Numbered from the stretch's first letter, positions 10,920 through 33,465 are shown. The stretch: 46,800 nucleotides of DNA from Bacteroidales bacterium (GCA_034678415.1 JAXDBV010000181.1:1-46800); one strand, 5' to 3'. Numbers and translations are program-made. Notes: generated by a model from the letters alone, not told the origin.

Positions 10920-10968
10920 AATTACGTAATTAAATCCGATATTATTACGTAATTAATTCAATAATTAA
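10920..10968. repeat. AT-rich repeat: two ATTACGTAAT palindromes and a GTAATTAATTCA unit
   Basis: aattacgtaatt at 10920-10931 and attacgtaattaattcaataattaa at 10944-10968. The same motif recurs at 45845-45897. Confidence 0.75.
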
Positions 10969-12304: not shown

Positions 12305-12336
12305 TTGAATGATATTAATAGTGTTTTTCGTACATG

Positions 12337-13701
12337 CTAATCCAACACTTTAATCTTGATGCTCCGGAACGATACCTCATTGCCATGATCCTGCAAAAGG
12401 ATATGACCTGAGGGAGCTTCGCCAAAGTCCTTCCAAATCTTGTATTTGCTTTCCGCCACCAGCTTCCTGAACTCATCGCTTCCCCGTTCATATTCCAGCA
12501 CCTTGAACCCGTTCAGCCAGTGTTCCACATGCATCCCCTTCGAGACGATCCTTGCCTGGTTCCATTCACCCATTGCATTCCTGCGTTTGTTTGTGGCCCT
12601 GATGAGGTCATACAACGAGGCCAGGGTACGGCTACCCTCGTGGTTCCCGAGCCTGGCATCGGGGTGGAGATCATCATCAAGAATCTGGTACTCAAGGCCG
12701 ATAGCCGATCCCTTGTTATGTTCCGATTCGGTAACGAAATACTTTATTCCGCTGTTGGCCCCGGGTGTGATGCGGAATTCCAGCTTCAGGTCAAAGTTGC
12801 TGAATTCATCCATGGTAACAATATCACCCCCGTTGACTGATTCTCCTCCGCCTGACGGGAGGACGGTGAGTATCCCGTTGTCTATGATCCATCCTTTTTC
12901 CGGGAAGTTGTCCTTGTATGCTCCGCGCCACCCGTTGCTGGTCTTGCCATCAAACAGGAGCCTCCACCCGTGTTCCGCTTCCCATACCGACAGGGTATTT
13001 GGTACCAGGTTCACCGGCTCGATTCCCATATCTTCCCTGATCCGGTATTTATCAAAATCTCCTGTGCATATCCGGATGTTTCTCCACCTTACCTTCTTCC
13101 CGGCGCTGGCCGTATCCTTTCCGATGGAGTGTACCTGCAGGCCGATGAAGCCGCTGCTTGTCAGGTTGTCGATGGTCCATGCAGCAGGGACTCCGTTGAG
13201 CCAGGTACGGATGGTATCTCCGATCGCTTCAATATGCAGGCTGTTCCAGTCCCTGAAGCGGAAGGCTGCCCTTGCTTTCTCGTTGTCGATCAGGGTATAG
13301 AGCCAGCCGCGTCGTGCCTCATCATAAATACCCCCGGTCCAGGCTCGCACGGAGGGATCGATCTCCACCTGGTAACCGTGTACGCGACCTTCCTGGTACT
13401 CAGGGAGGCTCAAGCTGCGGATCTGGATACCCGAGTTGAGCAGGGAATCAACCATGAACTCCAGCTCAAGTATGAAATCACCATAGTGCTCCGTGGTGCA
13501 GAGGAATGAATTCGGACTTCCCACGACAGTGGTACCCACGATCGCATGATCATCTACTGTATAGGATGCTGTGCCATTGACCAGCTCCCACCCCGTCAGG
13601 TCACGGCCGTTGAAGAGGCTGGTCCAGCCATCGCGCCTGTCTGAACAGCTGGTGGTTATAATGAGCAGGATAAGTGGAAGCAGATAACAGGTTTTTTTCA
13701 T
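12337..13701 (-). CDS. Tandem DUF1080 (3-keto-disaccharide hydrolase family) lipoprotein
   Basis: Lipobox TTS|C. Two repeats of 'W..LF(N/D)G....GW...NSGI...YQ...G.I.LQ.H...V..R.I.I'. Confidence 0.88.
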
Positions 13702-13709
13702 ATGGACTA

Positions 13710-14726
13710 TTATTTGTTTCTTACGGTTGATTCCCGGATGATCAGATGCGTGTTTACCTCGACGGTTCTTGCCGGTTTGGCCTGCTGCTTCCCGGCGATT
13801 TCTTCCAGGATGAGGTTGGCGGCATTGCTGCCCAGCCGGTGCGCATATTGTTCAACGGTGGTGATGGCCGGATCACAGAATGCCGTAACCTGTTCGTTGG
13901 CATAGCCCGCGACGGCGATGTCATCGGGCACCCGCTTACCGGCCTGCTTCAGGCAGAAGAGAACCCCCAGGGCGGCATAGTCGCCCGCCGATACAATGGC
14001 ATCGGGCAGGTCTTTTTTTAATAACCTGCCGACGCTGTCGAACCCAAACTGGTAGGTGAGTTCGCCGTCACAGATCATCGACGGATCAAGATCAACGGCA
14101 TATTCCTTCAATCCTTGCCGGAACCCTTCATACCTCTCCTTGTAGATATTCAGGTGCAGAGGACCGGTAAGGTAAGCAAAACGATGGAAACCTTCCTCCA
14201 CCAGGTGCCTGGCCAGCTCATAGCTCCCCCTGTAATTGGTGTTGACCACCATGCTTGACCGCAGATCGGTTCTTACCCTGTCAAACTGAACGAGCGGTAT
14301 CCCGTTCTCCGATATGACTTTCAGATGACCCGAAGAGACCGTCTCGTTGGAGATCGATATGATGATGCCGGCAACTCTGCTCCTCATGAGGGTTTTAATG
14401 TTTTCTACCTCTTTTCGGTAGTTTTCATTGGACTGGCAGATGATAAGACTGTATCCCGCCGGGCTGGTAACGCTTTCAATACCGCTGATGGTATCGGCGA
14501 AAAAGAACCGGTTGATCTTAGGAACGATGAGACCGATGCTATTAGCCTTGCCCGTTCTCAGGCTTGTGGCAATGGAATTGGGCCGGTAATTCAGTTCTTC
14601 TGCTGTCTTCTTCACCAGCTCACGGGTCTTTTTACTGATCCTCGGATGATTATGAAGAGCCCTCGAAACAGTTGATGCCGTGAGGTTTAACCGGCGGGCA
14701 ATATCATGTATGGTAACCTGCTTCAT
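13710..14726 (-). CDS. LacI-family transcriptional regulator
   Basis: HTH '[21 protein letters not shown]', hinge 'LNYRPN', and C-terminal '[10 protein letters not shown]' and 'LIIRES'. Confidence 0.95.
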
Positions 14727-14858: not shown

Positions 14859-16385
14859 ATGAACGAACTGTCAGCCAGAATCGGTAAATACCGGTGGACA
14901 ATCTGTGCACTTGTCTTCTTTGCCACCACTGTGAACTACCTCGATCGTCAGGTGCTTAGCCTTTTAAAAGACAGGCTTGAACTGGAATTCAACTGGAGCG
15001 ATTCGGATTATGCAAATATTGTTTCAGTATTCCAGTTTGTTTATGCTATTTCCATGCTTTTTGCCGGAAGGATCGTTGACTGGCTCGGCACAAAGATGGG
15101 ATATGCCTGGGCGTTGATTGTCTGGTCTGTAGGTGCCATGATCCATGCCCTGGCAAAAGGGACAGGCGGATTCATGGTTGCACGCGGTGTTCTCGGTTTT
15201 GGAGAATCGGGTAACTTTCCTGCCGCCATTAAAACCATCGCCGAATGGTTCCCGAAGAAAGAACGGGCGCTGGCCACAGGAATATTTAACTCCGGCGCCA
15301 ATGTCGGGGCCATACTGGCTCCGTTGACCGTCCCCTGGATCGCCCAGCACCTGGGCTGGAAAGCAGCATTCCTCATCGTGGGCGCAATCGGCCTGTCATG
15401 GCTTATCTTCTGGTTCTGGTTGTACGAAGTCCCTGCAAAGAGTAAACGGTTAGCACGGGCGGAATTTGATTATATACACAGCGATAATGTCGATGAAACG
15501 GGTGCTGCAGTGGTTGAAGATACCCAAAAGGTGCCGTGGTTCAAACTTCTCAGGTTTAAACAGACATGGGCTTTCAGCTTTGGTAAATTCATGACCGATG
15601 GGGTATGGTGGTTCTACCTGTTCTGGCTGCCGGCATACCTGAAAGCCCAGTATGGGATGACCGGGACAGAGGTGGCAATACCGCTGGCGGTACTGTATTC
15701 AATGTCTACCATCGGAAGTGTGATGGGCGGCTGGTTCCCGATGTATTTTATTAAAAGGGGATATGAACCCTATTCAGGCAGGATGAGGGCCATGCTGCTG
15801 ATAGCACTTATCCCGCTGCTGGTGTTGTCCGCCCAGTATCTCGGCGGTATCAGTTACTGGATGCCGGTGATTATCATTGGTATCGGTACTGCCGCTCACC
15901 AGGCCTGGTCAGCCAATATCTTTACCACGGTTTCCGATATGTTTCCAAAGAAGACGGTAGCCAGCGTGACAGGTATCGGCGGGATGGCTGGAGGCATCGG
16001 AGGCATTGTAATCACAAAATGCGCCGGATGGCTGTTTGATGGCTTCCGCAGTGCCGGTATCGCCAAAACATGGGTGGAGGCACAGGCTGCCAACATGGGT
16101 GAATTCGTTGAAAAGATACGCTCCCTCACACTGACAAACCGGCACGGTGATATAATTAACCTGGATAAAGTCGAACTGACAGGGCTACCGACAGAGGTGA
16201 TGCAGCAGGTCCAATCCATTGACCCGGCTATGTTTGATCAGTTGAAGACATTACAGATGCCGATCGTTCAGGGAAATATGACCACAGCATATACCATCGT
16301 CTTTGTTTTTTGTGCATTGGCTTACCTCATAGCATGGGTGGTGATGCACTTCCTCGTACCGAAATTCAAGAAGATTGAACTGTAA
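14859..16385 (+). CDS. exuT: MFS hexuronate transporter (ExuT-like) with an extra soluble insertion
   Basis: Motifs 'RWTICALVFFATTVNYLDRQ', 'GESGNFPAAIK..AEWFPKKERA.ATGIFNSG', 'WWFYLFWLP' and 'AHQAWSAN'. Confidence 0.88.
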   Translation: MNELSARIGKYRWTICALVFFATTVNYLDRQVLSLLKDRLELEFNWSDSDYANIVSVFQFVYAISMLFAGRIVDWLGTKMGYAWALIVWSVGAMIHALAKGTGGFMVARGVLGFGESGNFPAAIKTIAEWFPKKERALATGIFNSGANVGAILAPLTVPWIAQHLGWKAAFLIVGAIGLSWLIFWFWLYEVPAKSKRLARAEFDYIHSDNVDETGAAVVEDTQKVPWFKLLRFKQTWAFSFGKFMTDGVWWFYLFWLPAYLKAQYGMTGTEVAIPLAVLYSMSTIGSVMGGWFPMYFIKRGYEPYSGRMRAMLLIALIPLLVLSAQYLGGISYWMPVIIIGIGTAAHQAWSANIFTTVSDMFPKKTVASVTGIGGMAGGIGGIVITKCAGWLFDGFRSAGIAKTWVEAQAANMGEFVEKIRSLTLTNRHGDIINLDKVELTGLPTEVMQQVQSIDPAMFDQLKTLQMPIVQGNMTTAYTIVFVFCALAYLIAWVVMHFLVPKFKKIEL

Positions 16386-16651: not shown

Positions 16652-18106
16652 TCAGACATTATACGTTGATGAGGCCGTTTCTCCTCCCCGGCCCGTCCAG
16701 TTGGTATGGAAGAACTCACCTCGTGGCCTGTCTGTTCTCTCGTAAGTGTGAGCCCCGAAATAGTCGCGCTGCGCCTGTAGCAGGTTGGCCGGCAGCCGTG
16801 CTGAACGATACCCGTCAAAGTAAGCCAGTGCAGAAGACAAAGAAGGTAACGCGATGCCGTTCATCGCGGCGGCAGCAACCACATTCCTCCATCCTTTCTG
16901 TGCCCGGAGCACCACCTCCCTGAAATACGGATCGAGCAACAGGTTTTCCAGCCCGGGGTTCCTGTCGAAGGCTTCCTTGATCTTGCCCAGGAACAACGAC
17001 CGGATGATGCATCCTCCGCGCCACAGGAGAGCGATCCCTCCGTAGTTCAGTTCCCAGCCGTATTCCTTTGCCGCTTCCATCATCAGTGTGTACCCCTGTG
17101 CATACGAAACGATCTTTGACGCGTACAGGGCGTTCTTCAGATCACCGATAAATGCTTCCTTATCACCATTGAAAGATGGCACGGGTCCTTTCAGTATGGC
17201 GGAAGCTTTCACCCTTTCTTCCTTCAAGGCTGAGAGACAACGTGCATAGACAGCCTCACCGATCAGCGTGAGGGGGATGCCCAGGTCGAGGGAGGTCACG
17301 GCGGTCCATTTGCCGGTGCCTTTTTGCCCGGCAGTATCGAGTATCTTCTCCAGCAAAGGTTCTCCGTCTGTATCCCTGTAGGCGAGTATGTCCCTGGTGA
17401 TCTCAATGAGGTAACTGTTCAGCTCCGATTCGTTCCATGCCTTGAACACCTGATGCATTTCATCATAGCTCATCCTGAGATAATCCTTCATCAGAAAATA
17501 GGCTTCTGTGATCAGTTGCATATCGCCGTATTCAATCCCGTTATGCACCATTTTGACGAAATGGCCAGCGCCATTATCGCCCACCCAGTCGCAGCATGGG
17601 GTGCCGTCTTCGACCCTGGCAGCGATAGCCTGGAATACCGGTTTCACGATATCCCATGCAGCTTTTGATCCTCCCGGCATGATGGACGGTCCGCGGAGTG
17701 CCCCTTCCTCACCTCCCGACACACCGGTACCGATATACAGGATGCCTTTTGCTTCCACGTATCCGGTTCTCCGGATGGTATCGGGGAAGTGGGTGTTGCC
17801 GCCGTCGATAATCACATCCCCTTTGTCAAGGAAGGGAAGAATCTGTTCAATGAACTCATCGACGGGTTTGCCGGCTTTAACCAGCATCATGATCATCCTG
17901 GGCCGTTTGATCGATTCAACCAGTTCCCTGACAGAATGAGTGCCAATAATGTTTTTTCCTGCCCCGCGCCCGTTGACGAACTTGTCCACCTTTTCGGTGG
18001 TACGGTTATAAACGGCAACGGTAAAACCATGGCTCTCCATGTTCAGTACAAGGTTCTCACCCATTACTGCCAAACCGATCAGTCCGATATCCGCCATCTT
18101 TTTCAT
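16652..18106 (-). CDS. gnd: 6-phosphogluconate dehydrogenase, decarboxylating (NADP)
   Basis: Motifs 'GLAVMGENL', 'YNRT', 'GVSGGEEGA', 'KMVHNGIEYGDMQ', 'GQKGTG' and 'QAQRDYFGAH'. Confidence 0.97.
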   Translation of the reverse strand: MKKMADIGLIGLAVMGENLVLNMESHGFTVAVYNRTTEKVDKFVNGRGAGKNIIGTHSVRELVESIKRPRMIMMLVKAGKPVDEFIEQILPFLDKGDVIIDGGNTHFPDTIRRTGYVEAKGILYIGTGVSGGEEGALRGPSIMPGGSKAAWDIVKPVFQAIAARVEDGTPCCDWVGDNGAGHFVKMVHNGIEYGDMQLITEAYFLMKDYLRMSYDEMHQVFKAWNESELNSYLIEITRDILAYRDTDGEPLLEKILDTAGQKGTGKWTAVTSLDLGIPLTLIGEAVYARCLSALKEERVKASAILKGPVPSFNGDKEAFIGDLKNALYASKIVSYAQGYTLMMEAAKEYGWELNYGGIALLWRGGCIIRSLFLGKIKEAFDRNPGLENLLLDPYFREVVLRAQKGWRNVVAAAAMNGIALPSLSSALAYFDGYRSARLPANLLQAQRDYFGAHTYERTDRPRGEFFHTNWTGRGGETASSTYNV

Positions 18107-18136
18107 ACCTGTATGTTTTGAACGTTGTGTAAAAAA

Positions 18137-19414
18137 TCAATGCATAGTAAATCTTGACCGGGTAGACCACAGGCCCAGCGCGGGATTGGATATATAAAAG
18201 ATTGTTTCCCCGTCGGCCAGGGTATTGAAGCCCTCGGTCAGGGTTGAAGGGCTATATTTTTCAAGCATACGATCCAGCGGTGCATAGCTGAAATTCACCC
18301 CTTCGATCTCCTCCTTGGTGAGGGTCCCCGGGCAGTAGGTGATTCGGAACCGGTTTTCCGGTGAACCGTGGATGAGATGAGCGGCGGCGGCAAGGTTGTT
18401 CCGCAAGTCTTCATTTTTTTTCACATAATCAAGTATTTCGGGGGTGGTACGGTATCCGTATTTCCTTATCAGTCGGTCAATTTCCAGGTCTTCTCCAAAG
18501 GTTTTCACCCCCGGGGCAAGCACAATAAGGTCACCCCTGTCAGCAATAGCCATCCTTGTGCGGTAGATGCTTTTATTTCCCAGCCATGTGCTTTTGAATT
18601 CGTCCCTGTCAAGGTATACCACCACTTTGTTCAGGGGTTCATCGAGCATCTCAAAGTTCTTCTCCAGGCTGAGATCGGCAGCCGTTGTGAAACATTCCAT
18701 ATCATCCCCGATGAACAGACCGTTCATTCCCAGTTTCATTTGTGTATCCCTTGAAACTACCGTATGGAGATAGATTACGGGGAGGTGAGATGCAAAGTGT
18801 TCGGAGGCGTAGTTCAATACTTTTCTCACCGGGTTAATCGCCCTTCCCATGATACGTTCCATGCCGTATACCGCTCCCAGGAAATGGCTTTTGTGGATCC
18901 CTTCAGTTCCTCCAGTCCCAACGAACAGGTTTTTGTTGTAGTTGGCCATGCCTATCACCTCGTGAGGCACTACCTGCCCCACAGAGAGAATGAGGTCGAA
19001 CCCTCCCTCCACGATCAGCCTGTTCACCTGTGCAGGCCAGGGATAATCGAGCTTTCCTTCTGAGACCTCCCTGATGAAATGTCCCGGTACCTCACCCAGT
19101 GTCAGAACATCCTTCCGCCAGTTATGGTGGCGGAAAAGGCTGGCCGGCACCCCCGGATACATTGACGCAATCTCTCCTGCGCTCATGGCAGCATGGGTGC
19201 CAATGGCCGGCAGGATATCCGTTACGGCTGAACCGTAGTATTCCAGGATATAGCCCGTAAGGATTCCGGCCATGGAATGAAAGCGGGTGAAATCGGGAGG
19301 GACAATAAGCACCTTCTTCCGTCTCCCGAGTGCATCCAACGCCCCAAACACAAGTGTTTTAATCTCTTCGCGAGAAAGAAAACAGTCCGATTCAGCAATC
19401 TTGTACCACAGCAT
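18137..19414 (-). CDS. LarA/DUF2088-family epimerase, probable D-mannonate/D-gluconate 2-epimerase (GntE-like)
   Basis: LarA N-terminal motifs 'PPDFTR', 'AIGTH', 'HNW' and 'VPHEVIG'. Lies between uxuB and gnd. Confidence 0.75.
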   Translation of the reverse strand: MLWYKIAESDCFLSREEIKTLVFGALDALGRRKKVLIVPPDFTRFHSMAGILTGYILEYYGSAVTDILPAIGTHAAMSAGEIASMYPGVPASLFRHHNWRKDVLTLGEVPGHFIREVSEGKLDYPWPAQVNRLIVEGGFDLILSVGQVVPHEVIGMANYNKNLFVGTGGTEGIHKSHFLGAVYGMERIMGRAINPVRKVLNYASEHFASHLPVIYLHTVVSRDTQMKLGMNGLFIGDDMECFTTAADLSLEKNFEMLDEPLNKVVVYLDRDEFKSTWLGNKSIYRTRMAIADRGDLIVLAPGVKTFGEDLEIDRLIRKYGYRTTPEILDYVKKNEDLRNNLAAAAHLIHGSPENRFRITYCPGTLTKEEIEGVNFSYAPLDRMLEKYSPSTLTEGFNTLADGETIFYISNPALGLWSTRSRFTMH

Positions 19415-19417
19415 CGT

Positions 19418-20308
19418 TTACTCTCCTCTTTTCCATGGGGGATTCTCGGGAAGGTATTTCATGAATTCCTTCATGAGGCTGTCCTGGTATGATCCTTTAT
19501 ATTTCATGGCAAGGAACATGTCCAGGCCTTCGGTATAGAATCTCTCCCACGAATGTTCCTCATGCCCCGGGTTTATCGGGAAGAAGAGGACACCGTTATC
19601 CCTGGCGGCATTCAGATCGCCCAGGGCGTCACCAATCATCAGGATCTTGTCTTTGTTGTACTTTCCTCCGGCGGCCAAATGCAGGTGTTCAGCCTTGGTC
19701 CCGTATTCCTGTCCGGCAATGAACTTCACATACTGATCAATGTCGTTCTCCTTCCATTCCCTTTCCAGAGCTTCCACCGGTGTTTGCGACACCACGATGG
19801 CATCACAATGACCGTTCATTTTTTCCAGCGATTCCCTCACGAAAGGGAAGGGAGGCATGCCGTATACCATCTCTTCAATGGCACGGTTTACTGCTTTTGA
19901 CCACTTCAGGCAGGTATGGATAAATGGATCGTCAACCGTTGCGGCATATTTTTCAAGGGCAGGGTTTCCCAGCTTTGTTTCTTTACCGGTCCATTCCTCC
20001 AAGGAGCGTGTGTCGTGCACACGGAAATGTCTTGCCCTTACCTCGGGCCGTTCGTTCATGAGTTTGAAGGCTTCGATTACGGCAAGGAACCTGTTAACCC
20101 CCCGGTGCACGGAATAGAGGTTCACAAACTCCCATACCTCACGCGCGTATTTCTGTATCTTCTGCAATTCGAAATGAAGGATGAGATTGGGGCAGAAGCA
20201 CTCCTTCTGCTTGATCTCCATCGTGTCGAAGGCACAGCCATCCGAGTCGATACCTATGAAGAATTCCCTTTCAGGTTTCAGGTTCCTTAAAATAGTCTGG
20301 GGATTCAT
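19418..20308 (-). CDS. HAD-superfamily hydrolase/phosphatase
   Basis: Motif I 'GIDSDGCAFD', motif II 'VVS', Lys in 'GTK', motif IV 'MIGDALGD'. Confidence 0.85.
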   Translation of the reverse strand: MNPQTILRNLKPEREFFIGIDSDGCAFDTMEIKQKECFCPNLILHFELQKIQKYAREVWEFVNLYSVHRGVNRFLAVIEAFKLMNERPEVRARHFRVHDTRSLEEWTGKETKLGNPALEKYAATVDDPFIHTCLKWSKAVNRAIEEMVYGMPPFPFVRESLEKMNGHCDAIVVSQTPVEALEREWKENDIDQYVKFIAGQEYGTKAEHLHLAAGGKYNKDKILMIGDALGDLNAARDNGVLFFPINPGHEEHSWERFYTEGLDMFLAMKYKGSYQDSLMKEFMKYLPENPPWKRGE

Positions 20309-20314
20309 AGATCA

Positions 20315-21610
20315 TTATTTTTTAAGGTATGCTTCAGGTTTGTAAGAAGGCAGTTTTTTTTCAGCAAAGACCGGTCTGAACCGGGTGAAACGCTGCAGTC
20401 CTCCCATCAGTGGCACGGAGGGCCAGTCGTTCCCGATCAGCGGTGCGGCATAGGTGATGAATGCATCGGTCACATCCGTTTTGTCGGGTGTGATCCATGC
20501 TGCGGGGAATGTACGTTCGGAGAGAGCCACTTTTTCGAGCGGTACCTTATCGTATCTCACCTGGTACATGGTTGATGGTTCCCTCAGCAGGGTGGCCATC
20601 CAGCCGTTGCCATGATGCACCGCGATATCTGCTGCCTTCTGTCCCAGCTTGTAAGCCTCATCGAGGTCGATGGTGGATGCATAAATGGCTGATGAGCGCT
20701 GATCGGTACCCATTACCTGGCCTCTGGCAGCTCCCCGGGCTTTGATTCCGGCCCTGTTCAGGTAGTTCACCACCATCTGGAACACCGACATCGCGCTTGA
20801 TCCATAGGAGGTATGACCAAAGGCATCCTTCACCTCTCCGAGGTCTCCAACATGGAATCCTTCCGAGACCACGACGATGCAACGTTTGTTTTTCTTCAGG
20901 CAGTCGTTGATCCTGTCAGCCATTTCTTCCATACTGATGTTTGTCTCGGCCAAGTAAATCTGCAGGGGCATCTCCCTGGCGGGATCGGCCAGGCGTGCCG
21001 CCGCAGGTATATAACCTATCTTCCTCCCCATGGCCTGGAGCACCAGCACAGGGTCGGCCGGCCATGAACCCATGTTCTCCTCGTTAGCATTCTGTACCAG
21101 GTGAGCCCAGTAACGGGCAACTGAACCATAGCCTGGAGTGTGGTCAATAAGCTTGAACTCATTGTCTCCGAGATCATTGTCAATGGTTTTGGGCACGCCG
21201 GTGGCGACCAGCTGGAGCCCTTTCTCCCGCGCCAGCTCACTTACCTTGAAGGCCGTATGCTGCGAGTCGTTGCCTCCGATGTAGAAGAAATATCCGATAT
21301 TATGGGCGGTGAACACCTGCATGATTCTTTCAAAATCACGGTGCTGGTTATCTTTCAGCTTGTAACGGCAGGTGCCGATGCTTCCCGCTGCGGGTGTGCT
21401 GCGGAGCAGGGCGATCTCTTCCCTGTCCTGGGCCGACAAATCGAGCAGTTCCTCCCTGAGTACACCTTCAATACCGTGCCAGCCGGCATAAATGGTGCCG
21501 AACAGGTCGGGATATTCGCGACATGCATCGATGATCCCGCGTAACGAATTGTTGATGACAGGCGACGGCCCGCCCGACTGTGCAACAACGATGTTTTTCT
21601 TTTTCTCCAT
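20315..21610 (-). CDS. Phosphofructokinase-A family protein, PPi-type signature, divergent sugar-binding motif
   Basis: Motifs 'QSGGPSPVIN', 'GTCR', 'GGNDS', 'PKTIDND', 'QAMGRKIG' and 'VVSEG'. Confidence 0.85.
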   Translation of the reverse strand: MEKKKNIVVAQSGGPSPVINNSLRGIIDACREYPDLFGTIYAGWHGIEGVLREELLDLSAQDREEIALLRSTPAAGSIGTCRYKLKDNQHRDFERIMQVFTAHNIGYFFYIGGNDSQHTAFKVSELAREKGLQLVATGVPKTIDNDLGDNEFKLIDHTPGYGSVARYWAHLVQNANEENMGSWPADPVLVLQAMGRKIGYIPAAARLADPAREMPLQIYLAETNISMEEMADRINDCLKKNKRCIVVVSEGFHVGDLGEVKDAFGHTSYGSSAMSVFQMVVNYLNRAGIKARGAARGQVMGTDQRSSAIYASTIDLDEAYKLGQKAADIAVHHGNGWMATLLREPSTMYQVRYDKVPLEKVALSERTFPAAWITPDKTDVTDAFITYAAPLIGNDWPSVPLMGGLQRFTRFRPVFAEKKLPSYKPEAYLKK

Positions 21611-21645
21611 GGTTATTCAAACATGCGGTTAGGTGATACGTGTTG

Positions 21646-22500
21646 CTAAACTCCTCCGTAAGCGCTATAGCCTCCGTCGACAGGAATTACCACACCCGTG
21701 ATGAATTTCGACAGGTCGGAAAGCAGGAACAGGGTTACACCCGTAAGCTCTTCCACCTGACCGTATCGCCCCATGGGTGTATTGGCAATGATCTTCTCCC
21801 CCCGTTTCGTGGGTTTCCCCGATTTCTCATCGATCAGCAGGAAACGGTTCTGGTTGGTGAGGAAGAACCCGGGGGCGATGGCATTGACACGAATGCCTGT
21901 TTTTGCCAGGTGTACCGCCAGCCATTGTGTGAAATTGTTAACAGATGCCTTGGCAGCGGAATAGGCCGGGATCTTGGTCAGCGGCCTGAACGAGTTCATG
22001 GATGATATGTTCAGGATTACTCCTTCGCCCCTGCGAACCATTTCGCTTCCGAACACCAGGGTGGGTAATAAGGTACCCTTGAAATTCAGGGCAAAGATCC
22101 AGTCAAATCCCTCGGGATCAAGCCCGAAGACGGTGTCCCTGATATTCCCGGCATCATCGGGAGTGATCTGTTCAAGGGCGGTAGTTGCCTTTGGAGAGTT
22201 GCCACCGGCACCATTGATGAGAAAATCCACCTTACCGAAACGACTGGTTATTTTACTGCAGGCCTCATCCAGGCTCGCTCTGTTGAGCACATCGGCTGCG
22301 ATACCGGCGGAGGGGCAACCGGATTCCTCCGTTATCTTCCCTGCCACCTCATTTGCCGCCGCCTCATTGATATCGACGATCGCCGTCCTGATGCCTGACA
22401 TTGACAGACCTCTGGCAATAGCCGAGCAAATGATCCCTGCTCCACCAGTGATTACAGCAACCTTTCCTTCAAGGTGCCGGTACATTTCCGTGTGTTTCAT
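21646..22500 (-). CDS. uxuB: SDR-family D-mannonate oxidoreductase (fructuronate reductase)
   Basis: Motifs 'TGGAGIIC', 'NGAGGN.PKAT', 'PLTKIPAYSAAKA', 'FTQWLAVH' and 'PGFFLTNQN'. Confidence 0.85.
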   Translation of the reverse strand: MKHTEMYRHLEGKVAVITGGAGIICSAIARGLSMSGIRTAIVDINEAAANEVAGKITEESGCPSAGIAADVLNRASLDEACSKITSRFGKVDFLINGAGGNSPKATTALEQITPDDAGNIRDTVFGLDPEGFDWIFALNFKGTLLPTLVFGSEMVRRGEGVILNISSMNSFRPLTKIPAYSAAKASVNNFTQWLAVHLAKTGIRVNAIAPGFFLTNQNRFLLIDEKSGKPTKRGEKIIANTPMGRYGQVEELTGVTLFLLSDLSKFITGVVIPVDGGYSAYGGV

Positions 22501-22545
22501 AATTATAAGGTATTGACCGAATCGTGATAACCATCATTTCCTCTA

Positions 22546-22553
22546 CAAAATTA
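22546..22553 (-). promoter_or_regulatory. Putative -7 promoter box for the uxuB-gnd operon
   Basis: TAATTTTG on the minus strand. The expected -33 position, 19 bp upstream, falls inside operator 2. Confidence 0.55.
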
Positions 22554-22571
22554 GGTATTATTCAAGAAAAA

Positions 22572-22583
22572 GCAATCGATTGC
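22572..22583. promoter_or_regulatory. Putative LacI operator 2 (GCAATCGATTGC)
   Basis: Perfect 12-bp palindrome upstream of uxuB. Confidence 0.8.
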
Positions 22584-22801
22584 ACTGATTTTTATTCTAT
22601 TCATGAAATATGAATATAATGCAAGAAGAATTTAATATTGATAACATTAGATTGTAATATAGTTAAATATTTATTAATAAAAGTAAAAGCATCGTTAATA
22701 TTATTTAGCCTACGTTTAGTTTATGACATAGAATGACACAAAACGTTAAGAAATGGATTTGATTATTCAATATAAGAGAAGGTGAGATGGAAATAAAACC
22801 A

Positions 22802-22809
22802 TAATTTTG
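22802..22809 (+). promoter_or_regulatory. Putative -7 promoter box for uxaE-uxaC
   Basis: TAATTTTG on the plus strand, 11 bp before operator 3. Confidence 0.5.
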
Positions 22810-22820
22810 ATTACTTTAGT

Positions 22821-22830
22821 CAATCGATTG
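22821..22830. promoter_or_regulatory. Putative LacI operator 3 (CAATCGATTG)
   Basis: Same palindromic core, upstream of uxaE. Confidence 0.78.
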
Positions 22831-22921
22831 CATTACTGATGATCGGGAGGCGGGAGCTCTACGGAGCGGGATACGGGGAAGCTTGAATATCAGTAAGTAA
22901 CATTAAAAACTTTACCATTGT

Positions 22922-24169
22922 ATGAGATTAGGAAAATACTCCTTTGGAACTGGTGACCGTTTCGGCCACCAGGGGGAAGCCCAGCTGAGAGCTATAATGA
23001 AAGCCAATGAGATGGGAATACATCTCATTCCTGTCTGGAACAAATCCTTCAGAGAGCATACCATCGTGCATTCGCAGCCGTCGGATGTAAGAAAGGAAGC
23101 CGATGAGGCGGTGAAGAATGCCGGATGGAAAGATGAATACTATGTGGATGCTGACCATATTAATATAAAGAATGTGGATCTGTTCCTTGATTGCAGCAAT
23201 TTTTTCACCATTGATGTAGCCGATTATATTGGCAGGCCGGCAGGGAAGGAAGAGACGGCGGCCTTTATTAAGAGGAACAGCAAGTATCTTGGCAAGCTGC
23301 AGATACCGGGGATCGATGAAGCCATTGAGCTTACCGGGGATCAGCTTGCGGCCATTGCCTCGCGGTACCTGTATGCCGTCACGGAGGCATCGCGCATCTA
23401 TCATCATATCGCAGCAAAGAAAGGAAGGGATAATTTTGTGGCTGAGATTTCGATGGATGAGGTGAGTGAGCCCCAGACACCCCTTGATCTATTCTTTATC
23501 CTTGGCGCACTTGCTGCCCTGCAGGTGGAAGCGCAGACTATTGCCCCGAGATTTACCGGAAGGTTCAATAAAGGAGTAGATTACGAAGGTGATGTGCAAC
23601 GGTTCGCAAAGGAGTTTGAAGACGACCTGCTCGTGATCGATCATGCCATCCGCGAGTTTGGACTGCCAGCCAACCTGAAACTCAGTATCCATTCCGGCAG
23701 CGATAAGTTTGCCATCTATCCTGCTATTGGACGGCTGATACGGAAATACGACAAGGGGATCCATGTGAAGACGGCTGGTACCACATGGCTCGAAGAGATA
23801 ATCGGGCTGGCTCTGTCGGGAAAGGAAGGATTGCATCTGGCCTGCGATATTTATGAAAAAGCGCTGGGCAGGTATGATGAGATGACCGGCCCGTATGTCA
23901 ATGTCCTTAACATTGACCGGCTACAATTACCCGATCCCCGGGAGATCAGGGCATGGAACAGTGAGAAATTTGCATCCGCCCTCAGGCATGAGGCCACCAG
24001 CAGTGAATACAATCCTCATTTCCGGCAGTTTATGCATGTGAGCTATAAGATTGCCGCGGAAGCAGGCAGCTATTTCACCGGTATGCTGAAAAAGCATGCG
24101 GCTGTTATTGCCGAACAGGTGACCCTGAACCTGTTTGACCGGCATATAAAACGTATTTTTAATTGTTAA
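22922..24169 (+). CDS. uxaE: Tagaturonate/fructuronate epimerase
   Basis: Motifs 'SFGTGDRFG', 'DADH', 'EISMDE', 'F.KGVDY.GD', 'KLSIHSGSDKF' and 'HVKTAGTTWLE'. Confidence 0.88.
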   Translation: MRLGKYSFGTGDRFGHQGEAQLRAIMKANEMGIHLIPVWNKSFREHTIVHSQPSDVRKEADEAVKNAGWKDEYYVDADHINIKNVDLFLDCSNFFTIDVADYIGRPAGKEETAAFIKRNSKYLGKLQIPGIDEAIELTGDQLAAIASRYLYAVTEASRIYHHIAAKKGRDNFVAEISMDEVSEPQTPLDLFFILGALAALQVEAQTIAPRFTGRFNKGVDYEGDVQRFAKEFEDDLLVIDHAIREFGLPANLKLSIHSGSDKFAIYPAIGRLIRKYDKGIHVKTAGTTWLEEIIGLALSGKEGLHLACDIYEKALGRYDEMTGPYVNVLNIDRLQLPDPREIRAWNSEKFASALRHEATSSEYNPHFRQFMHVSYKIAAEAGSYFTGMLKKHAAVIAEQVTLNLFDRHIKRIFNC

Positions 24170-24189
24170 AATAACAAGCTGTGACTATC

Positions 24190-25590
24190 ATGAAACCATT
24201 CATTGACGAGAATTTCCTCCTGTTCACGAAGACGGCACGGAAGCTTTTCCATGAACATGCCAGCCTGTTGCCTGTTATTGATTACCATTGTCATCTGAGC
24301 CCGAAGGAGCTGGCTGAAGACAAACGGTTCGGGAACCTCACCCAGGCCTGGTTGTACGGTGATCATTACAAATGGAGAGCCATGCGGACCAACGGGGTGG
24401 ATGAGAAATACTGCACCGGTGATGCCAGCGATGAGGATAAATTCATGAAGTGGGCCGAGACAGTGCCTCATACTCTTCGCAATCCCCTGTACCACTGGAC
24501 CCACCTTGAACTGAAGAGGTATTTCGGGTTGGATGCACTCCTGGGACCTGACACGGCTAAGGCTATTTACAACGAGGCATCGGCAAAACTTGTAACGGCT
24601 GATTATTCCGTGCGCAACCTGTTGAGAAAGATGAAGGTCGAAGTGGTGTGTACCACGGATGACCCGGTCGATACACTGGAATATCACCAGAAGCTGAAAT
24701 CCGACGGCTTCGAGATAAAGGTGCTGCCCGCCTGGCGTCCGGATAAAGCCATGATGGTTGAGAATACAGAGAATTTCAACCGGTATATCCAACAGCTGGA
24801 GCAGGCAGCAATAATGGATATCGTGTCGTTTGATGATTTAATAGCTGCCCTCAGGAAACGGCATGACTACTTTGCCGAAAACGGATGCAGACTATCCGAC
24901 CACGGACTTGAAACCGTGTATGCCAGTGATTATACGGCCACTGAAATCAATCATATTTTTAAGAAGCTCAGGGAGAGAAAATCCCTGGAACATGAAGAGA
25001 TCATCCGATTCAAGTCGGCCATGCTGTATGAGTTTGGTGTTATGGACCATGAGAAGAACTGGGTGCAGCAATTTCACCTGGGAGCCCTGCGCAACAACAA
25101 CACTCGTATGTTCAGGCAGCTGGGACCGGATACCGGGTTTGATTCAATCATCGACACGGAGATGGCCAGGCCTCTTTCCCGTTTCCTCGATCGTCTTGAC
25201 CGGGATAACCGCCTGGCAAAAACGATCCTCTACAACCTGAATCCCCGGGACAATGAACTGATCGTTACCATGGCAGGCAACTTCCAGGACGGATCGGTGC
25301 CCGGCAAGATACAGTTTGGCTCAGCCTGGTGGTTCCTCGACCAGATGGACGGGATGGAGAAACAGCTGAATGCCCTTTCAAACCTGGGATTGCTCAGCCG
25401 TTTCATTGGTATGCTCACCGATTCAAGAAGCTTCCTGTCTTACCCGCGACATGAATATTTCAGGCGTATCCTGTGCAACCTGGTGGGCAATGATGTGGAA
25501 AAAGGACTGATACCTGACGATATGGAACTGCTGGGTCCATTCATCGAAGGGATCTGCTATTATAATGCCAGACAGTATTTTGGTTTTTAA
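24190..25590 (+). CDS. uxaC: Uronate (glucuronate/galacturonate) isomerase
   Basis: Motifs 'IDYHCHL', 'GDHYKWRAMR', 'NPLYHWTHLEL', 'GSAWWF.DQ' and 'TDSRSFLSYPRHEYFRR'. Start set at ATG 24190. Confidence 0.96.
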   Translation: MKPFIDENFLLFTKTARKLFHEHASLLPVIDYHCHLSPKELAEDKRFGNLTQAWLYGDHYKWRAMRTNGVDEKYCTGDASDEDKFMKWAETVPHTLRNPLYHWTHLELKRYFGLDALLGPDTAKAIYNEASAKLVTADYSVRNLLRKMKVEVVCTTDDPVDTLEYHQKLKSDGFEIKVLPAWRPDKAMMVENTENFNRYIQQLEQAAIMDIVSFDDLIAALRKRHDYFAENGCRLSDHGLETVYASDYTATEINHIFKKLRERKSLEHEEIIRFKSAMLYEFGVMDHEKNWVQQFHLGALRNNNTRMFRQLGPDTGFDSIIDTEMARPLSRFLDRLDRDNRLAKTILYNLNPRDNELIVTMAGNFQDGSVPGKIQFGSAWWFLDQMDGMEKQLNALSNLGLLSRFIGMLTDSRSFLSYPRHEYFRRILCNLVGNDVEKGLIPDDMELLGPFIEGICYYNARQYFGF

Positions 25591-25863: not shown

Positions 25864-26283
25864 CTATTTCTGGATTAAATATTTATAGAACCTTGAGAAT
25901 TCATGTCTGATCTCATCCCTTACCCGCCGGAAGACAGCCAGTTGTTCTTCTTCTGTTCCCTTTGCTTCTGCGGGATCATCAAAATCGATGTGTAGTCTTG
26001 ATTTTACTTTACCCCAGAACACGGGGCAGTTTTCCTTAGCAGCATCGCATACCGTCACAAGGTAATCGAACTCTTCATTGACGAACAAGTCGGCATTCTT
26101 TGGTCTGTAATCTGAAATGTCTATGCGGGTCTCCTTCATCACCTTCACTGCTTTGGGATGTACAGCATCAGTGGGGAAAGTACCGGCTGAATATACATCC
26201 AGGGTTGGGTCGAAGGATTTGAGGAATGCCTCCGCCATTTGACTCCGGCATGAATTACTGGTACAGAGAATGAGTATTTTCAT
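25864..26283 (-). CDS. arsC: Arsenate reductase, LMW-PTP/thioredoxin type
   Basis: P-loop 'CTSNSCRSQMAE', 'TVCD.A.ENCP' and 'DDPA...FRRVRDEI'. Confidence 0.9.
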   Translation of the reverse strand: MKILILCTSNSCRSQMAEAFLKSFDPTLDVYSAGTFPTDAVHPKAVKVMKETRIDISDYRPKNADLFVNEEFDYLVTVCDAAKENCPVFWGKVKSRLHIDFDDPAEAKGTEEEQLAVFRRVRDEIRHEFSRFYKYLIQK

Positions 26284-26549: not shown

Positions 26550-28235
26550 TCAGGAATAGAGATAGCGTTTTATTTTCTGTGTGGCTGTTTTCTCAAAAGG
26601 CTGAGGCTGGTATATCACTGCATGCAGCTGTGAGAATTTATTTACCCGGGCATTCACGTATGTCAACAGTTCTTTCAGCAGGTCATCGATCACTTGTTCC
26701 ACGTTTCTCACGGCTTCCTGCCGGACTTGTTTTGCATCGTTCAGGAATACCTGGAGTCGTGCTTCCACCTCTTCTTTGTTCAGGTGGACGAGGGCTACCA
26801 GCTTGTCTTTGTGTTTTACAACAACCGATTCCAGCACGTGGTGAAAGGTATTGATCACCGATTCGATCTCCTCGGGAATAATATTTTTCCCGTTGGCACC
26901 AATGATGATGTTTTTCAGGCGGCCGTTGATATGCAGGTTTTTCTGCTTATCGATATATCCCAGGTCGCCCGTGCGGAACCACCCGTCGGATGTCATCACC
27001 TCGGCGGTGAGGTCAGGTCTCTTATAATAGCCTTTCATAACATTAGATCCGCGAACCAGGATTTCCGGCAGTCCGGTCTCAGGATCGTTCCGGAGTGACA
27101 CCTCCACCTCAGGCAGGACGCGTCCGGTAGATTGAAAACGGATGTTTTTTCCTATGCCTCCGGCCACGAGAGGCGATGTTTCAGTAAGTCCGTAACCGAT
27201 AGCAAAGGGGAACCGTGCTTCACGCAGGAACTGTTCTACCGTTGCATCAAGCTTTGCACCGCCGATACCGAAAAATTTCAGCCTTCCTCCAAAAGTTTTC
27301 ATCAGTTTCCTTCCGGCCGCCAGGTGCAACAGGCGCCGGAAGAGGGGGATGGCATAAATGAAACGCAAGACAGGATGGTGGGTAAATTTGGGCAACACGC
27401 TGTTTCTGAATACTTTCTCAATCACCAGAGGAACACTGAGCATGAGGGTGGGTCTCACTGCAGCCAGTGCCGGCAGCAGCACGCTGGCGGTAGGCGGCTT
27501 ATCAAGGTAAACAATCTGCGAACCACCGAGGAGAGGCATCATCAACCCGATTGTGTTTTCATACGTATGCGCCAGGGGAAGGATGGAAAGAAATACATCA
27601 CCGGTAGTGGCCGGCTGTACAGTAAATCCCTGCAGGGCATCAAACACAATATTTCTGTGCGTCAGCATTACTCCTTTGGAGTTCCCGGTAGTGCCTGATG
27701 TATAAATGATAGCTGCCAGGTCGTCCTCGTTCACTTCGGCAGGTATCAGGCGGAGATCTGCTCCCGGCCGGTTCATTGACGTATCTGCCTTCCAGTTCTC
27801 ATCCCGGAGTGAGTCATCCGTGACGGTAAGATCCTCAAGGAGTACCCTGTGCTGCAGATCGGGCAGGTCTTCTCCTTCGATCCTTGCCAGCTGTTTCTCC
27901 GAGGCAATAAGAAGTTTGGAAAGAGAGTGGTTCAGCACCTGCCGGATCTCGGCCGGTGTGAACTCAGGCATCACGGGAACAGCAATGGCTCCCATGCTCG
28001 TGACAGACAGATAGGCAACAACCCAATTGGGCATGTTAGGTCCCAGTATAGCTACCCTGTCACCCTTACGGATCCCTTGTTGCTGAAGCTTTGATTGAAA
28101 ATTTGAAATCATCCTTCCCAGCTCAGCATACGTAATCGCTTCGTTATTTACATATGAGAGACAAGGCAGGTTGTTGTATTCGCGTATCCCGTGTAAAACA
28201 ACCTCGCGGATGGTTTGTCGACCTGGTAGTTTCAT
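26550..28235 (-). CDS. Long-chain fatty acid-CoA ligase (AMP-binding)
   Basis: Motifs 'IIYTSGTTGNSKGV', 'GYGLTETSP' and 'NVMKGYY...GWFRTGDLG'. Confidence 0.92.
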   Translation of the reverse strand: MKLPGRQTIREVVLHGIREYNNLPCLSYVNNEAITYAELGRMISNFQSKLQQQGIRKGDRVAILGPNMPNWVVAYLSVTSMGAIAVPVMPEFTPAEIRQVLNHSLSKLLIASEKQLARIEGEDLPDLQHRVLLEDLTVTDDSLRDENWKADTSMNRPGADLRLIPAEVNEDDLAAIIYTSGTTGNSKGVMLTHRNIVFDALQGFTVQPATTGDVFLSILPLAHTYENTIGLMMPLLGGSQIVYLDKPPTASVLLPALAAVRPTLMLSVPLVIEKVFRNSVLPKFTHHPVLRFIYAIPLFRRLLHLAAGRKLMKTFGGRLKFFGIGGAKLDATVEQFLREARFPFAIGYGLTETSPLVAGGIGKNIRFQSTGRVLPEVEVSLRNDPETGLPEILVRGSNVMKGYYKRPDLTAEVMTSDGWFRTGDLGYIDKQKNLHINGRLKNIIIGANGKNIIPEEIESVINTFHHVLESVVVKHKDKLVALVHLNKEEVEARLQVFLNDAKQVRQEAVRNVEQVIDDLLKELLTYVNARVNKFSQLHAVIYQPQPFEKTATQKIKRYLYS

Positions 28236-28379
28236 CCCGTATTACTTCCTGTTTCTGCAAATGTACGGTTAATTTTTTGATTTATTTTTAAGCTTTACAG
28301 GCAATGACAAACAGCTGCCCCATGTTTTGTCATGGCACGAAAGGCCTGAGATGACATCGATCAAGTCGGAACAGGAAAC

Positions 28380-28520
28380 CATGGCAAGAGCTTTCATGTT
28401 CTTACCCGGATACCCCGTTGCTGTTGCATTGATTGCGGGGCGAGCTCTTTGTGCTGTCAGCAATCGCCGGTTAAGCACGAACAGGAAGGAAGAAGCAGCG
28501 TTCGTAAGGAATTCTGCGAG
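28380..28520 (-). pseudogene. Possible relic of an ArsG/cytochrome-c-biogenesis-type arsenic permease
   Basis: Minus-strand 'LLTAQRARPAINATATGYPGKNMK' resembles my recalled consensus 'LLTAISPCPLATNITAIGYISKD'. Lies directly after the arsR relic. Confidence 0.45.
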
Positions 28521-28614
28521 AACTTATCCCATCTTCCGTTAACAATGTACAGATCACCCGTTGCCGCATGACTGATCTGCCTGAATTTTCAAAACCAGTT
28601 ACACGGCATTTTCA

Positions 28615-28896
28615 TCAGCGGTACTTTTCATCATAATTGTCCCTGTTCAGGCAATATGTGATACGGGGATGATTGATTTCTCCCCGGATGCGACCAGCCT
28701 TTTTAATTCGTTCATATGTTGTGTAAGTGTTGATTTGGCTCTTGGCAGCACTTCCGACAGGTGGGTGCCAAACGCGTATGTATGGGGGGAGAGGAGGTCA
28801 GGGATAAACATTTGCAGGGAAGGTCCCATGGTCATGGCTAATCTTGCAGCATCCTTCGGTGATTCTTCCTGGCGTAATTTCCCGGGCGGGTAACAT
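28615..28896 (-). pseudogene. arsR: Frameshifted ArsR-family regulator relic
   Basis: 'ARLAMTMG...LSEVLPRAKSTLTQHMNELKR' continues in another frame as 'IRGEINHPRITYCLNRDNY'. This matches the Bacteroidota ArsR pattern 'LPLAQSTVSQHLKELK..GLIQGEI..P...YCIN'. Confidence 0.7.
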
Positions 28897-28930
28897 GAAG
28901 GAAATCTGACCGGGTGGGGGCAAAGAAATC

Positions 28931-30373: not shown

Positions 30374-30384
30374 ACTTTACGGAT

Positions 30385-31557: not shown

Positions 31558-31587
31558 TCCCGTAGTATAAATTATGGTGAACAGGTG

Positions 31588-33366: not shown

Positions 33367-33465
33367 GGGGATTGTTCTGCAAGGATTACTGTTATTAAAG
33401 GTAAAGATAATCAATTATTAAATCTGATAAATCTGACGTCCCTGAATCCGGCCGGAAAAAGAAAA

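Follow-up and report, generated by a model that had tools for sequence, protein, structure and literature searches.

A diverged phosphofructokinase-family protein as candidate sugar-acid kinase of a hexuronate operon in Bacteroidales

How is the sugar acid phosphorylated in a bacterium whose genes for the conversion of hexuronates into pentose phosphates include no recognizable gluconate kinase? This question is raised by a stretch of 46,800 nucleotides from a Bacteroidales bacterium (GCA_034678415.1, JAXDBV010000181.1:1-46800; termed the window, at its full length), in which positions 16652 to 25590 carry a set of uronate genes and, among them, a gene for a phosphofructokinase (PFK)-family protein that we call PFKx. 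The initial annotation had proposed that this PFK paralogue replaces the missing gluconate or mannonate kinase and uses pyrophosphate (PPi). The replacement is strongly supported by conserved synteny, by complementarity with a second kinase and by the absence of GntK from further PFKx genomes; the PPi donor and the exact substrate lie outside that support. From these sequence comparisons we put the probability that PFKx is the sugar-acid kinase of the pathway at roughly 60%.

As described initially, the minus strand carries a tight operon with gaps of 3 to 35 bp, divergent from uxaE-uxaC, and open reading frames (ORFs) and profile scores agree on this. It consists of UxuB, a fructuronate reductase / D-mannonate oxidoreductase of the short-chain dehydrogenase/reductase (SDR) type (21646-22500; NF006132, 370 bits, cut-off 281), the diverged PRK14072-type PFK-family kinase PFKx (20315-21610; PF00365, 127.1 bits, cut-off 30.9; NF010675, 375.1 bits, cut-off 273), a HAD-IA hydrolase with a large cap (19418-20308; PF13419, 27 bits; no NCBIfam family), the nickel-pincer-dependent putative hexonate or 6-phosphohexonate 2-epimerase LarAH18 (18137-19414; NF052594, 646 bits, cut-off 500) and the NADP-dependent decarboxylating 6-phosphogluconate dehydrogenase Gnd (16652-18106; TIGR00873, 768 bits); in the ORF listing the gaps are 35, 6, 3 and 30 bp. 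On the plus strand follow the tagaturonate/fructuronate epimerase UxaE (22922-24169; PF16257, 200 bits) and the uronate isomerase UxaC (24181-25590; PF02614, 710 bits; NF002794, 653 bits). According to the ORF coordinates, the divergent intergenic region at 22501-22921 presumably holds the promoters and an operator. UxaC, UxaE, UxuB and Gnd are all located at this one locus, as in a Thermotoga-type pathway from uronate to 6-phosphogluconate. A Pfam scan of 32 window ORFs (29 non-overlapping ORFs from the 150-aa list, UxaC, the ORF at 28931-30373 and a 139-aa ORF at 25864-26283) brought up no further kinase and no dehydratase belonging to the classical uronate routes, in line with the initial annotation; six of the scanned ORFs matched no family.

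We propose that the cluster provides a route from hexuronates to pentose phosphates that avoids the Entner-Doudoroff steps. UxaC would isomerize galacturonate or glucuronate, UxaE would convert tagaturonate to fructuronate and UxuB would reduce fructuronate to free D-mannonate; a kinase and LarAH18, acting in either order, would then lead from mannonate to 6-phosphogluconate, which Gnd would convert to ribulose-5-phosphate. The kinase step is assigned to PFKx, as a PFK-A-family enzyme that would have moved from fructose-6-phosphate (F6P) to the terminal hydroxyl group of a non-phosphorylated sugar acid. The neighbours of UxuB bear on the place of this step. An orthologue of UxuB (63% identity) adjoins UxuA in locus L173 and a more distant UxuB (43%) adjoins it in L179. 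As UxuA uses free mannonate, UxuB should make free mannonate and the kinase most likely acts after UxuB, which leaves mannonate or gluconate as its substrate; in some lineages 2-keto-3-deoxygluconate (KDG) is probably accepted as well. The phosphoryl donor would be PPi, judging from Asp115 and Lys141, and the pathway would then be ATP-sparing. Both are family-wide signature residues, and we regard PPi as donor as roughly half as probable as the kinase role. The HAD protein appears to be a phosphatase-type enzyme travelling with PFKx, most likely editing a PFKx by-product or removing an inhibitor of Gnd.

The gene neighbourhood of PFKx was compared for the best 80 of 184 relatives, with one genome per species and with neighbours identified by tblastn with the window proteins. 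Across these 80 loci, PFKx is 72-79% identical, and the hosts comprise Bacteroidales, Cytophagales, Ignavibacteria and Melioribacteraceae as well as metagenome-assembled genomes (MAGs) labelled Chitinophagales, a Rhodothermaceae MAG and a MAG labelled Fibrobacterota. The recurring order is UxuB-PFKx-HAD-LarAH18-(PdxB)-Gnd, where the PdxB-like gene found between LarAH18 and Gnd in many Bacteroidales loci scores 433 bits against a cut-off of 434. Where 1 kb or more of room is available, HAD immediately follows PFKx in 74 of 75 loci; L051 is the exception. Counted at loci with room, a full-length UxuB ORF is present upstream of PFKx in 60/70, LarAH18 in 67/71 by any tblastn match and in 63/71 as a full-length ORF, and full-length Gnd in 55/59. 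UxaE homologues in related clusters show 52-64% identity. Two loci, L022 and L029, consist of PFKx-HAD-Gnd only, without UxuB, UxaE and LarAH18, and two from Melioribacteraceae, L079 and L088, combine PFKx and HAD with UxaE-like, Eda and UxuA genes and with TRAP transporter genes and KduI-like and KduD-like ORFs, the last three names being given by eye. The genomes of these four loci without LarAH18, and that of L055, all hold LarAH18 and Gnd elsewhere (5/5). One genome (L193, G251:C9) has two PFKx-HAD pairs, one beside Gnd (L029) and a more diverged one (70% and 54% identity) after UxuB-LarAH18.

A second kinase was first noticed between UxuB and LarAH18 in loci without PFKx. This protein, PfkBx, is a KdgK-like PfkB-family kinase of 359 aa (L183:9572-10651). 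For a quantitative comparison, 201 genomes of the order of the source genome, evenly drawn and including the source genome itself, were searched with four queries. LarAH18 was found in 42, HAD in 16, PFKx (E <= 1e-150) in 10 and PfkBx (E <= 1e-80) in 31 genomes; G068, with an intact 470-aa copy of PFKx that carries an insert and falls below the first threshold, was also counted as a PFKx holder. Among the 42 LarAH18 genomes, 10 hold PFKx only (G068 included), 29 PfkBx only, one both and two neither. The sole genome with both kinases, G122, is a contaminated MAG (7 Mb in 1120 contigs, 6% contamination). Fisher's exact test for the exclusion among LarAH18 genomes gives p = 4.7e-7, which makes the case look stronger than it is, since the genomes are kin. 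Switches between the two kinases were seen inside three families: f1, with the source genome against G175, f11 and f37. PFKx is confined to genomes with LarAH18 (10/10 in the sample and 5/5 of the exception genomes named above), and 30 of 31 PfkBx holders have LarAH18. In a further 50 PFKx genomes PfkBx was found in none, while the same query and threshold matched the 31 genomes of the order as a positive control. GntK of the SKI or the FGGY type was over cut-off in none of these 50 genomes.

Operon structure points in the same direction. Of the LarAH18 loci that lack PFKx and HAD, 13 were fetched; nine of them have PfkBx next to LarAH18, mostly as UxuB-PfkBx-LarAH18-(PdxB)-Gnd, and in the genomes of the remaining four PfkBx is located elsewhere. 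Conservation of PfkBx among the nine loci is 58-83%. Furthermore, a genome with PfkBx (G226) retains a 120-aa PFKx remnant (L176:3474-3836), which lacks about residues 41-343, with 4-40 running directly into 344-419, and precedes an intact HAD-LarAH18-GFO-Gnd row. PfkBx is a relative of KDG kinases that reaches no curated family cut-off. It occurs together with canonical KdgK in L179, L182 and L189, and is therefore not simply KdgK. We read these data as non-orthologous displacement, in which PFKx, together with HAD, and PfkBx would do the same job, and PfkBx (with its homologues in L179-L190) becomes a candidate hexonate, possibly mannonate, kinase. PfkBx resembles PFKx in its position, mostly in the operon slot of PFKx, and in its dependence on LarAH18, but it has an unrelated fold, is presumably ATP-dependent and usually occurs without HAD. 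The H+-translocating pyrophosphatase (H+-PPase) was tried as a marker to separate the two groups and proved useless: it is present in 179 of the 201 genomes, the source genome among those that have it, and indicates an order of PPi-minded species without discriminating between PFKx and PfkBx holders.

The PFKx translation contains all three motifs pointed out initially, GGNDS, PKTIDND and QAMGRKIG. The protein is above the cut-offs of the PFK-A family PF00365 and of the PRK14072 subfamily NF010675, and an NCBIfam scan returned PFK families only, with neither GntK family (TIGR01313, TIGR01314) among them. Among solved structures, 3hno and 3k2q come closest (approximately 250 bits over the full length); both are structural-genomics entries annotated as PPi-PFKs. 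For a detailed comparison of motifs, 90 rows were aligned, 87 of them full-length representatives of 50% clusters and three the other PFK paralogues of the source genome. GGNDS and the Lys of PKTIDND turned out to be the norm across the PRK14072-like family; the PPi-type residues are present in PFKx, as stated initially, and are no peculiarity of this protein. The alteration of the sugar-site motif, on the other hand, is specific: Gln in place of Glu before MGR marks the PFKx clade, together with a six-residue insert after PKTIDNDL, YGSS in place of LGG, and TDQR.

In 31 PFKx orthologues (mean column identity 86%), R82, D115, K141, D144, D146, R196 and E250 are invariant. We take R82, D144 and R196 to be the equivalents of the catalytic or phosphoryl-transfer residues R72, D127 and R171 of Escherichia coli PFK; the Arg of TxR, the Asp of TIDND and the Arg of MGR are kept in PFKx. 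We assume that PPi as donor is marked by Asp104 together with Lys124 in E. coli numbering; their counterparts in PFKx are Asp115 (GGNDS) and Lys141 (PKTIDND), the residue pair expected of PPi-PFKs. An argument for a new substrate from the loss of 6-phosphate ligands was dropped. Pro187 and Thr302 of PFKx presumably stand at Arg162 and His249 of E. coli PFK, and both positions are variable throughout the PRK14072-like family.

Phylogenetic analysis with FastTree, after removal of three degenerate rows (P0210, P0228 and P0245), grouped PFKx with its four nearest representatives and with P0154 and P0271 in a clade that has a support of 99. Identities of PFKx to the representatives are 64, 61, 51 and 50% and then fall straight to 43% or less. 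The same clade holds a branch with the motifs GGNGT and AQTFGR that shares the insert and the Gln. For this sister branch (metagenome loci L103-L163), 68 loci were fetched. Of the 27 that offer 2.5 kb or more of downstream room, 25 have an NTP-transferase homologue within this distance on the same strand, and the loci sit among NeuB, DegT and GT2 genes in glycan-biosynthesis clusters. Such neighbours make an F6P kinase unlikely and point to a probable role of the sister branch as a sugar kinase in nucleotide-sugar synthesis. The wider clade has therefore probably abandoned F6P.

We extended the analysis to the whole source genome, an assembly of 3.3 Mb in 367 contigs that is 90% complete; these searches did not take in UxaB. 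UxuA, UxaA, Zwf and PfkBx gave no match. GntK of the SKI type (TIGR01313) gave nothing over cut-off, its two weak matches being an adenosine-5′-phosphosulfate kinase and a shikimate kinase, and neither did GntK of the FGGY type (TIGR01314); the FGGY matches of the genome are glycerol, xylulose-like, fuculose and ribulose kinases and an unassigned kinase adjoining a rhamnose-isomerase-like gene. Eda is present in one copy on another contig, and the window copy of Gnd is the only one (one match by tblastn). A short transaldolase/FSA-type gene is also present. LarC was detected on contig C114 (501 bits) in a search that did not take in LarB and LarE, and the nickel-pincer nucleotide cofactor can therefore be made. 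Three more PFK genes are present, of the PRK06830 type (GGDGT), of a mixed type (GGDDT and PKT) and of the PRK03202 type. PFKx is therefore a fourth paralogue, and on present evidence glycolysis does not need it. The best-scoring PFK of the genome, the PRK03202-type protein (L001:1468-2610 on contig C214, 394 bits), has GGGGT for GGDGT and MGH for MGR, which is unusual for an active ATP-PFK. Contig C242 carries two orphan kinases with no telling neighbours, a KdgK-like PfkB kinase (37% identical to Bacteroidales KdgK) and a XylB-like FGGY kinase.

Two features of the source genome were rejected as general arguments. Gnd without Zwf does not hold beyond it, as Zwf is found in 39 of the 50 further PFKx genomes, and the absence of UxuA is no general feature either, with a match in 20 of the 50.

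The constant partner of PFKx is the HAD protein, which in the sample of 201 genomes occurs in 11/11 PFKx genomes compared with 5/31 other LarAH18 genomes. Its motifs DxD, S/T, K and GDxxxD are invariant in 31 sequences (D21, D23, S174/T176, K205, D227, D231), and its cap is inserted after motif I, as in HAD-IA phosphatases and mutases. An AlphaFold2 model (pLDDT 94) has generic HAD-IA phosphatases and mutases as Foldseek neighbours (TM 0.4-0.5), including a mannitol-1-phosphate phosphatase domain, beta-phosphoglucomutase, phosphoglycolate phosphatase, the BT2127 pyrophosphatase and CbbY; neither Foldseek nor the protein atlas gave a clue to the substrate beyond generic HAD-IA, and a sequence search of the PDB returned nothing below E = 0.03. 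HAD persists without PFKx in L173, L174 and L176 and stands alone in L172 and L175. An in-frame HAD-Gnd fusion of 803 aa (P0274, 14 member sequences) is 53% identical to HAD and 61% to the window Gnd, and on contig C149 of the source genome (L177:902-2965) a bona fide PdxB (449 bits, cut-off 434) is immediately preceded by a second paralogue of HAD with 53% identity. Two apparent PFK-HAD fusions, P0300 and P0303, are gene-call artefacts whose middle parts are low-complexity read-through. Complex prediction for PFKx and HAD (score 0.00, mark 0.32) was counted neither for nor against an interaction.

6-Phosphogluconate dehydrogenase is inhibited by 4-phosphoerythronate, which is cleared by the proofreading phosphatases Pho13 of yeast and CpgA of Bacillus subtilis, according to the accessible part of PMC6449344. 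Together with the fusion to and adjacency with Gnd and the PdxB-linked paralogue, this inhibition suggests by analogy that HAD is an editing or protective phosphatase linked to Gnd. The likeness to Pho13 and CpgA, as described in that part, is that a phosphatase shields 6-phosphogluconate dehydrogenase, here with HAD tied to Gnd and its paralogue tied to PdxB, the 4-phosphoerythronate dehydrogenase; beyond the HAD superfamily there is no sequence relationship, and the comparison is a lead and not an assignment. An editing role would leave the greater need of PFKx for HAD, compared with PfkBx, unexplained, unless PFKx is the less specific kinase.

A wider substrate range of PFKx is indicated by two genomes, G042 and G046, in which PFKx-HAD lies among KDG-making genes (UxuA, and KduI-like and KduD-like genes named by eye) and Eda, which cleaves 2-keto-3-deoxy-6-phosphogluconate; neither contains a KdgK homologue at E <= 1e-40. 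G042 has in addition a separate UxuB-LarAH18-Gnd-transketolase row with no kinase in it. Among 15 PFKx genomes with full-length UxuA, eight have no KdgK homologue at this threshold, in a search with a single query that divergent PfkB kinases can escape. PFKx may also act on KDG, which we treat only as a lead. In its widest form, which we hold only tentatively, PFKx would be a promiscuous PPi-dependent 6-kinase for D-mannonate, D-gluconate and KDG that has repeatedly taken the place both of the PfkB hexonate kinase and of KdgK among anaerobic members of the Bacteroidota and Ignavibacteriota, with HAD as a dedicated editing phosphatase that clears misphosphorylated products or compounds that inhibit Gnd, such as 6-phosphomannonate or 4-phosphoerythronate.

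The same neighbourhood might be explained by an ordinary reversible PPi-dependent kinase for F6P or sedoheptulose-7-phosphate (S7P) serving the pentose-phosphate flux from Gnd, as the initial annotation had allowed, with the hexonate kinase elsewhere, for instance one of the orphan PfkB or FGGY kinases on C242. The NF010675 score over cut-off, the annotation of the closest structures and the loci L022 and L029, where PFKx-HAD-Gnd occurs without UxuB or LarAH18, all fit such an enzyme, orphan kinases are indeed present in the source genome, and S7P kinase activity of PPi-PFKs is established in the accessible parts of PMC12203962 and PMC7029132. Such a function gives, however, no reason for the complementarity with a KdgK-like kinase conditional on LarAH18, for the decay of PFKx to a remnant where PfkBx is present or for the restriction of PFKx to LarAH18 genomes. 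The source genome already has three other PFKs, one of them with GGDDT/PKT, and a transaldolase, and the sister branch of the PFKx clade sits in glycan clusters. The family score and L022/L029 still speak for an F6P/S7P kinase; on balance we consider it unlikely.

Two further explanations keep PFKx within uronate metabolism and change its reaction. PFKx and HAD might form a two-step unit, in which PFKx adds a phosphate group, HAD removes or moves another and the pair delivers the correct 6-phospho product; heptose activation, where a kinase is combined with a HAD phosphatase, provides the analogy. The near-constant adjacency of the two genes, the presence of HAD in every PFKx genome of the sample, the HAD-Gnd fusion and the intact catalytic motifs of HAD agree with this model. 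A phosphorylated input is, however, not evident in the pathway, a hexonate has only one primary hydroxyl group, PfkBx works without HAD in 25 of 29 genomes, and HAD is kept without PFKx in five genomes, all of which makes a two-step unit quite improbable. Alternatively, PFKx could phosphorylate D-fructuronate at its hydroxymethyl group, with the later steps acting on phosphorylated intermediates. On chemical reasoning fructuronate resembles an F6P whose phosphate has been exchanged for a carboxylate, PFKx regularly has UxuB and UxaE in its neighbourhood, and the family name TIGR04382 records a 5-dehydro-hexonate 6-kinase as a precedent in inositol catabolism. To this we give very little credence: UxuB adjoins the free-mannonate user UxuA in L173, as its more distant form does in L179, L022 and L029 lack both UxuB and UxaE, and the Melioribacteraceae loci put PFKx together with UxuA, Eda, KduI and KduD.

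Several observations weigh against PFKx as the sugar-acid kinase. NF010675, whose cut-off PFKx passes, is named diphosphate-fructose-6-phosphate 1-phosphotransferase, and Arg296 and Arg305 of PFKx occupy positions that, as we assume, hold the F6P 6-phosphate in classical PFK. Two LarAH18 genomes, G209 and G241 (98% complete), have neither PFKx nor PfkBx, also when rechecked at E <= 1e-40, and either of the two orphan kinases on C242 could in principle carry the hexonate kinase step. Gnd as a steady neighbour fits a pentose-phosphate role for PFKx as well, and where Zwf is present, in 39/50 PFKx genomes, Gnd need not depend on PFKx. The constant HAD partner is unexplained by a simple kinase model. 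Finally, the compared genomes are related and most of them are MAGs, and the functions of PFKx, PfkBx, LarAH18 and HAD are predictions.

The surroundings of the operon point to pectin use: profile scans of the neighbouring ORFs identified a PL11 rhamnogalacturonan lyase, a Pel9A-like enzyme, GH28 and GH43. A major facilitator superfamily (MFS) transporter, probably a hexuronate importer (14859-16385, plus strand; PF07690, 185 bits), has homologues of 44-79% identity in related clusters, and a LacI-family regulator (PF00356 and Peripla_BP_3) is encoded at 13710-14726 on the minus strand. Adjoining the LacI gene, at 10958-13701 on the minus strand, a GFO/IDH/MocA oxidoreductase lies beside a protein with a 3-keto-disaccharide hydrolase domain (301 bits); Gfo-type oxidoreductases also occur inside the related LarAH18-Gnd clusters L090, L176, L178 and L187. 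Further away, three adjoining ORFs at 874-5877 (minus strand) carry, according to the Pfam scan, a Peptidase_C14 caspase domain (132 bits), MACPF (47 bits) and a thiol-activated-cytolysin domain (154 bits) and could be a pore-forming protein set of an environmental member of the Bacteroidota. A row of genes at 26550-33414 (minus strand) has no relation to the uronate genes and encodes two AMP-binding enzymes together with one GNAT-domain and one flavin amine-oxidase-like protein.

In a single study, three metatranscriptome runs contain short contigs, most of them 95-99% alike, that fall on Gnd, LarAH18, HAD, PFKx, the 5′ end of uxuB with the intergenic region, and UxaE. These contigs stem from a relative and none spans a gene junction by 31 letters; they are only a weak hint of expression of the cluster, and stretches that lack coverage carry no information. 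Near-identical DNA was found in metagenomes of anaerobic digesters, landfills and wastewater, four of the digester runs possibly being the source sample.

Should the proposed function of PFKx be confirmed, the novelty would lie in a PFK-A-family member acting as sugar-acid kinase, since the type of pathway is already known. PFKx would be the first known case of a PFK-A-family enzyme that accepts a sugar acid carrying no phosphate group, and would extend the substrate range of the PFK family beyond phosphorylated ketoses; automatic annotations of these genes as 6-phosphofructokinase would need correction. A PPi-driven entry step would then operate in the fermentation of pectin and uronates in anaerobic digesters, landfills and sediments, possibly with a proofreading phosphatase tied to 6-phosphogluconate dehydrogenase. 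A literature search revealed no PFK-family protein linked to gluconate, mannonate or KDG; Table S1 of PMC7583248, on the context of LarAH group 18, lies outside that search and may already list a PFK or PfkB neighbour. A 2025 review of the PFK superfamily names F6P and S7P as the only substrates in its accessible text, where the word gluconate is absent (PMC12203962).

Comparison with known systems places PFKx nearest to the PRK14072-type PPi-PFKs of known structure (3hno and 3k2q), with which it shares the fold family, length, GGNDS or a related motif, PKTxDND, MGR and the Asp and Lys of the donor signature. PRK14072-type enzymes presumably include the PPi-dependent 6-phosphofructokinases of methanotrophs. 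PFKx differs from this type as a discrete clade with its insert, the Gln before MGR, YGSS and TDQR, and in always being found in sugar-acid operons, where it is exchangeable with a PfkB kinase. For the pathway, the closest model is the UxaC-UxaE-UxuB-GntE-GntK-Gnd route of Thermotoga maritima (Rodionova 2012, as reported in the accessible parts of PMC6978723 and PMC7583248). Both lead from hexuronate via fructuronate and mannonate to 6-phosphogluconate and pentose phosphate with a LarA-family epimerase, but the present cluster has LarAH18 where the T. maritima route, as reported there, has GntE2 (group 20), and it lacks GntK, whose slot holds PFKx and HAD or, in sister operons, PfkBx. The GntE enzymes described in the accessible part of PMC7583248 belong to LarAH19 and LarAH20, were tested and act on free mannonate, while the function of group 18 is put forward there as a hypothesis. 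The epimerase of the window belongs to group 18 (NF052594, NPN_18_hexonate, nickel-dependent putative hexonate epimerase). The GntE of the initial annotation is therefore correct as to the LarA family and does not fall into the tested groups 19 and 20, and a combination of tested-type GntE with GntK is not found here. In extracts of Lactobacillus suebicus, mannonate is phosphorylated first, with ATP, and 6-phosphomannonate is then epimerized; the candidates are GntK homologues and genes are unassigned in the accessible part of that report (PMC6978723). The present cluster shares with this route, as described there, the phosphorylation of a hexonate and its C2 epimerization to 6-phosphogluconate, but its candidates are a PFK- or PfkB-family kinase and a LarA homologue; PFKx, PfkBx and LarAH18 are gene candidates for such activities measured in cell extracts.

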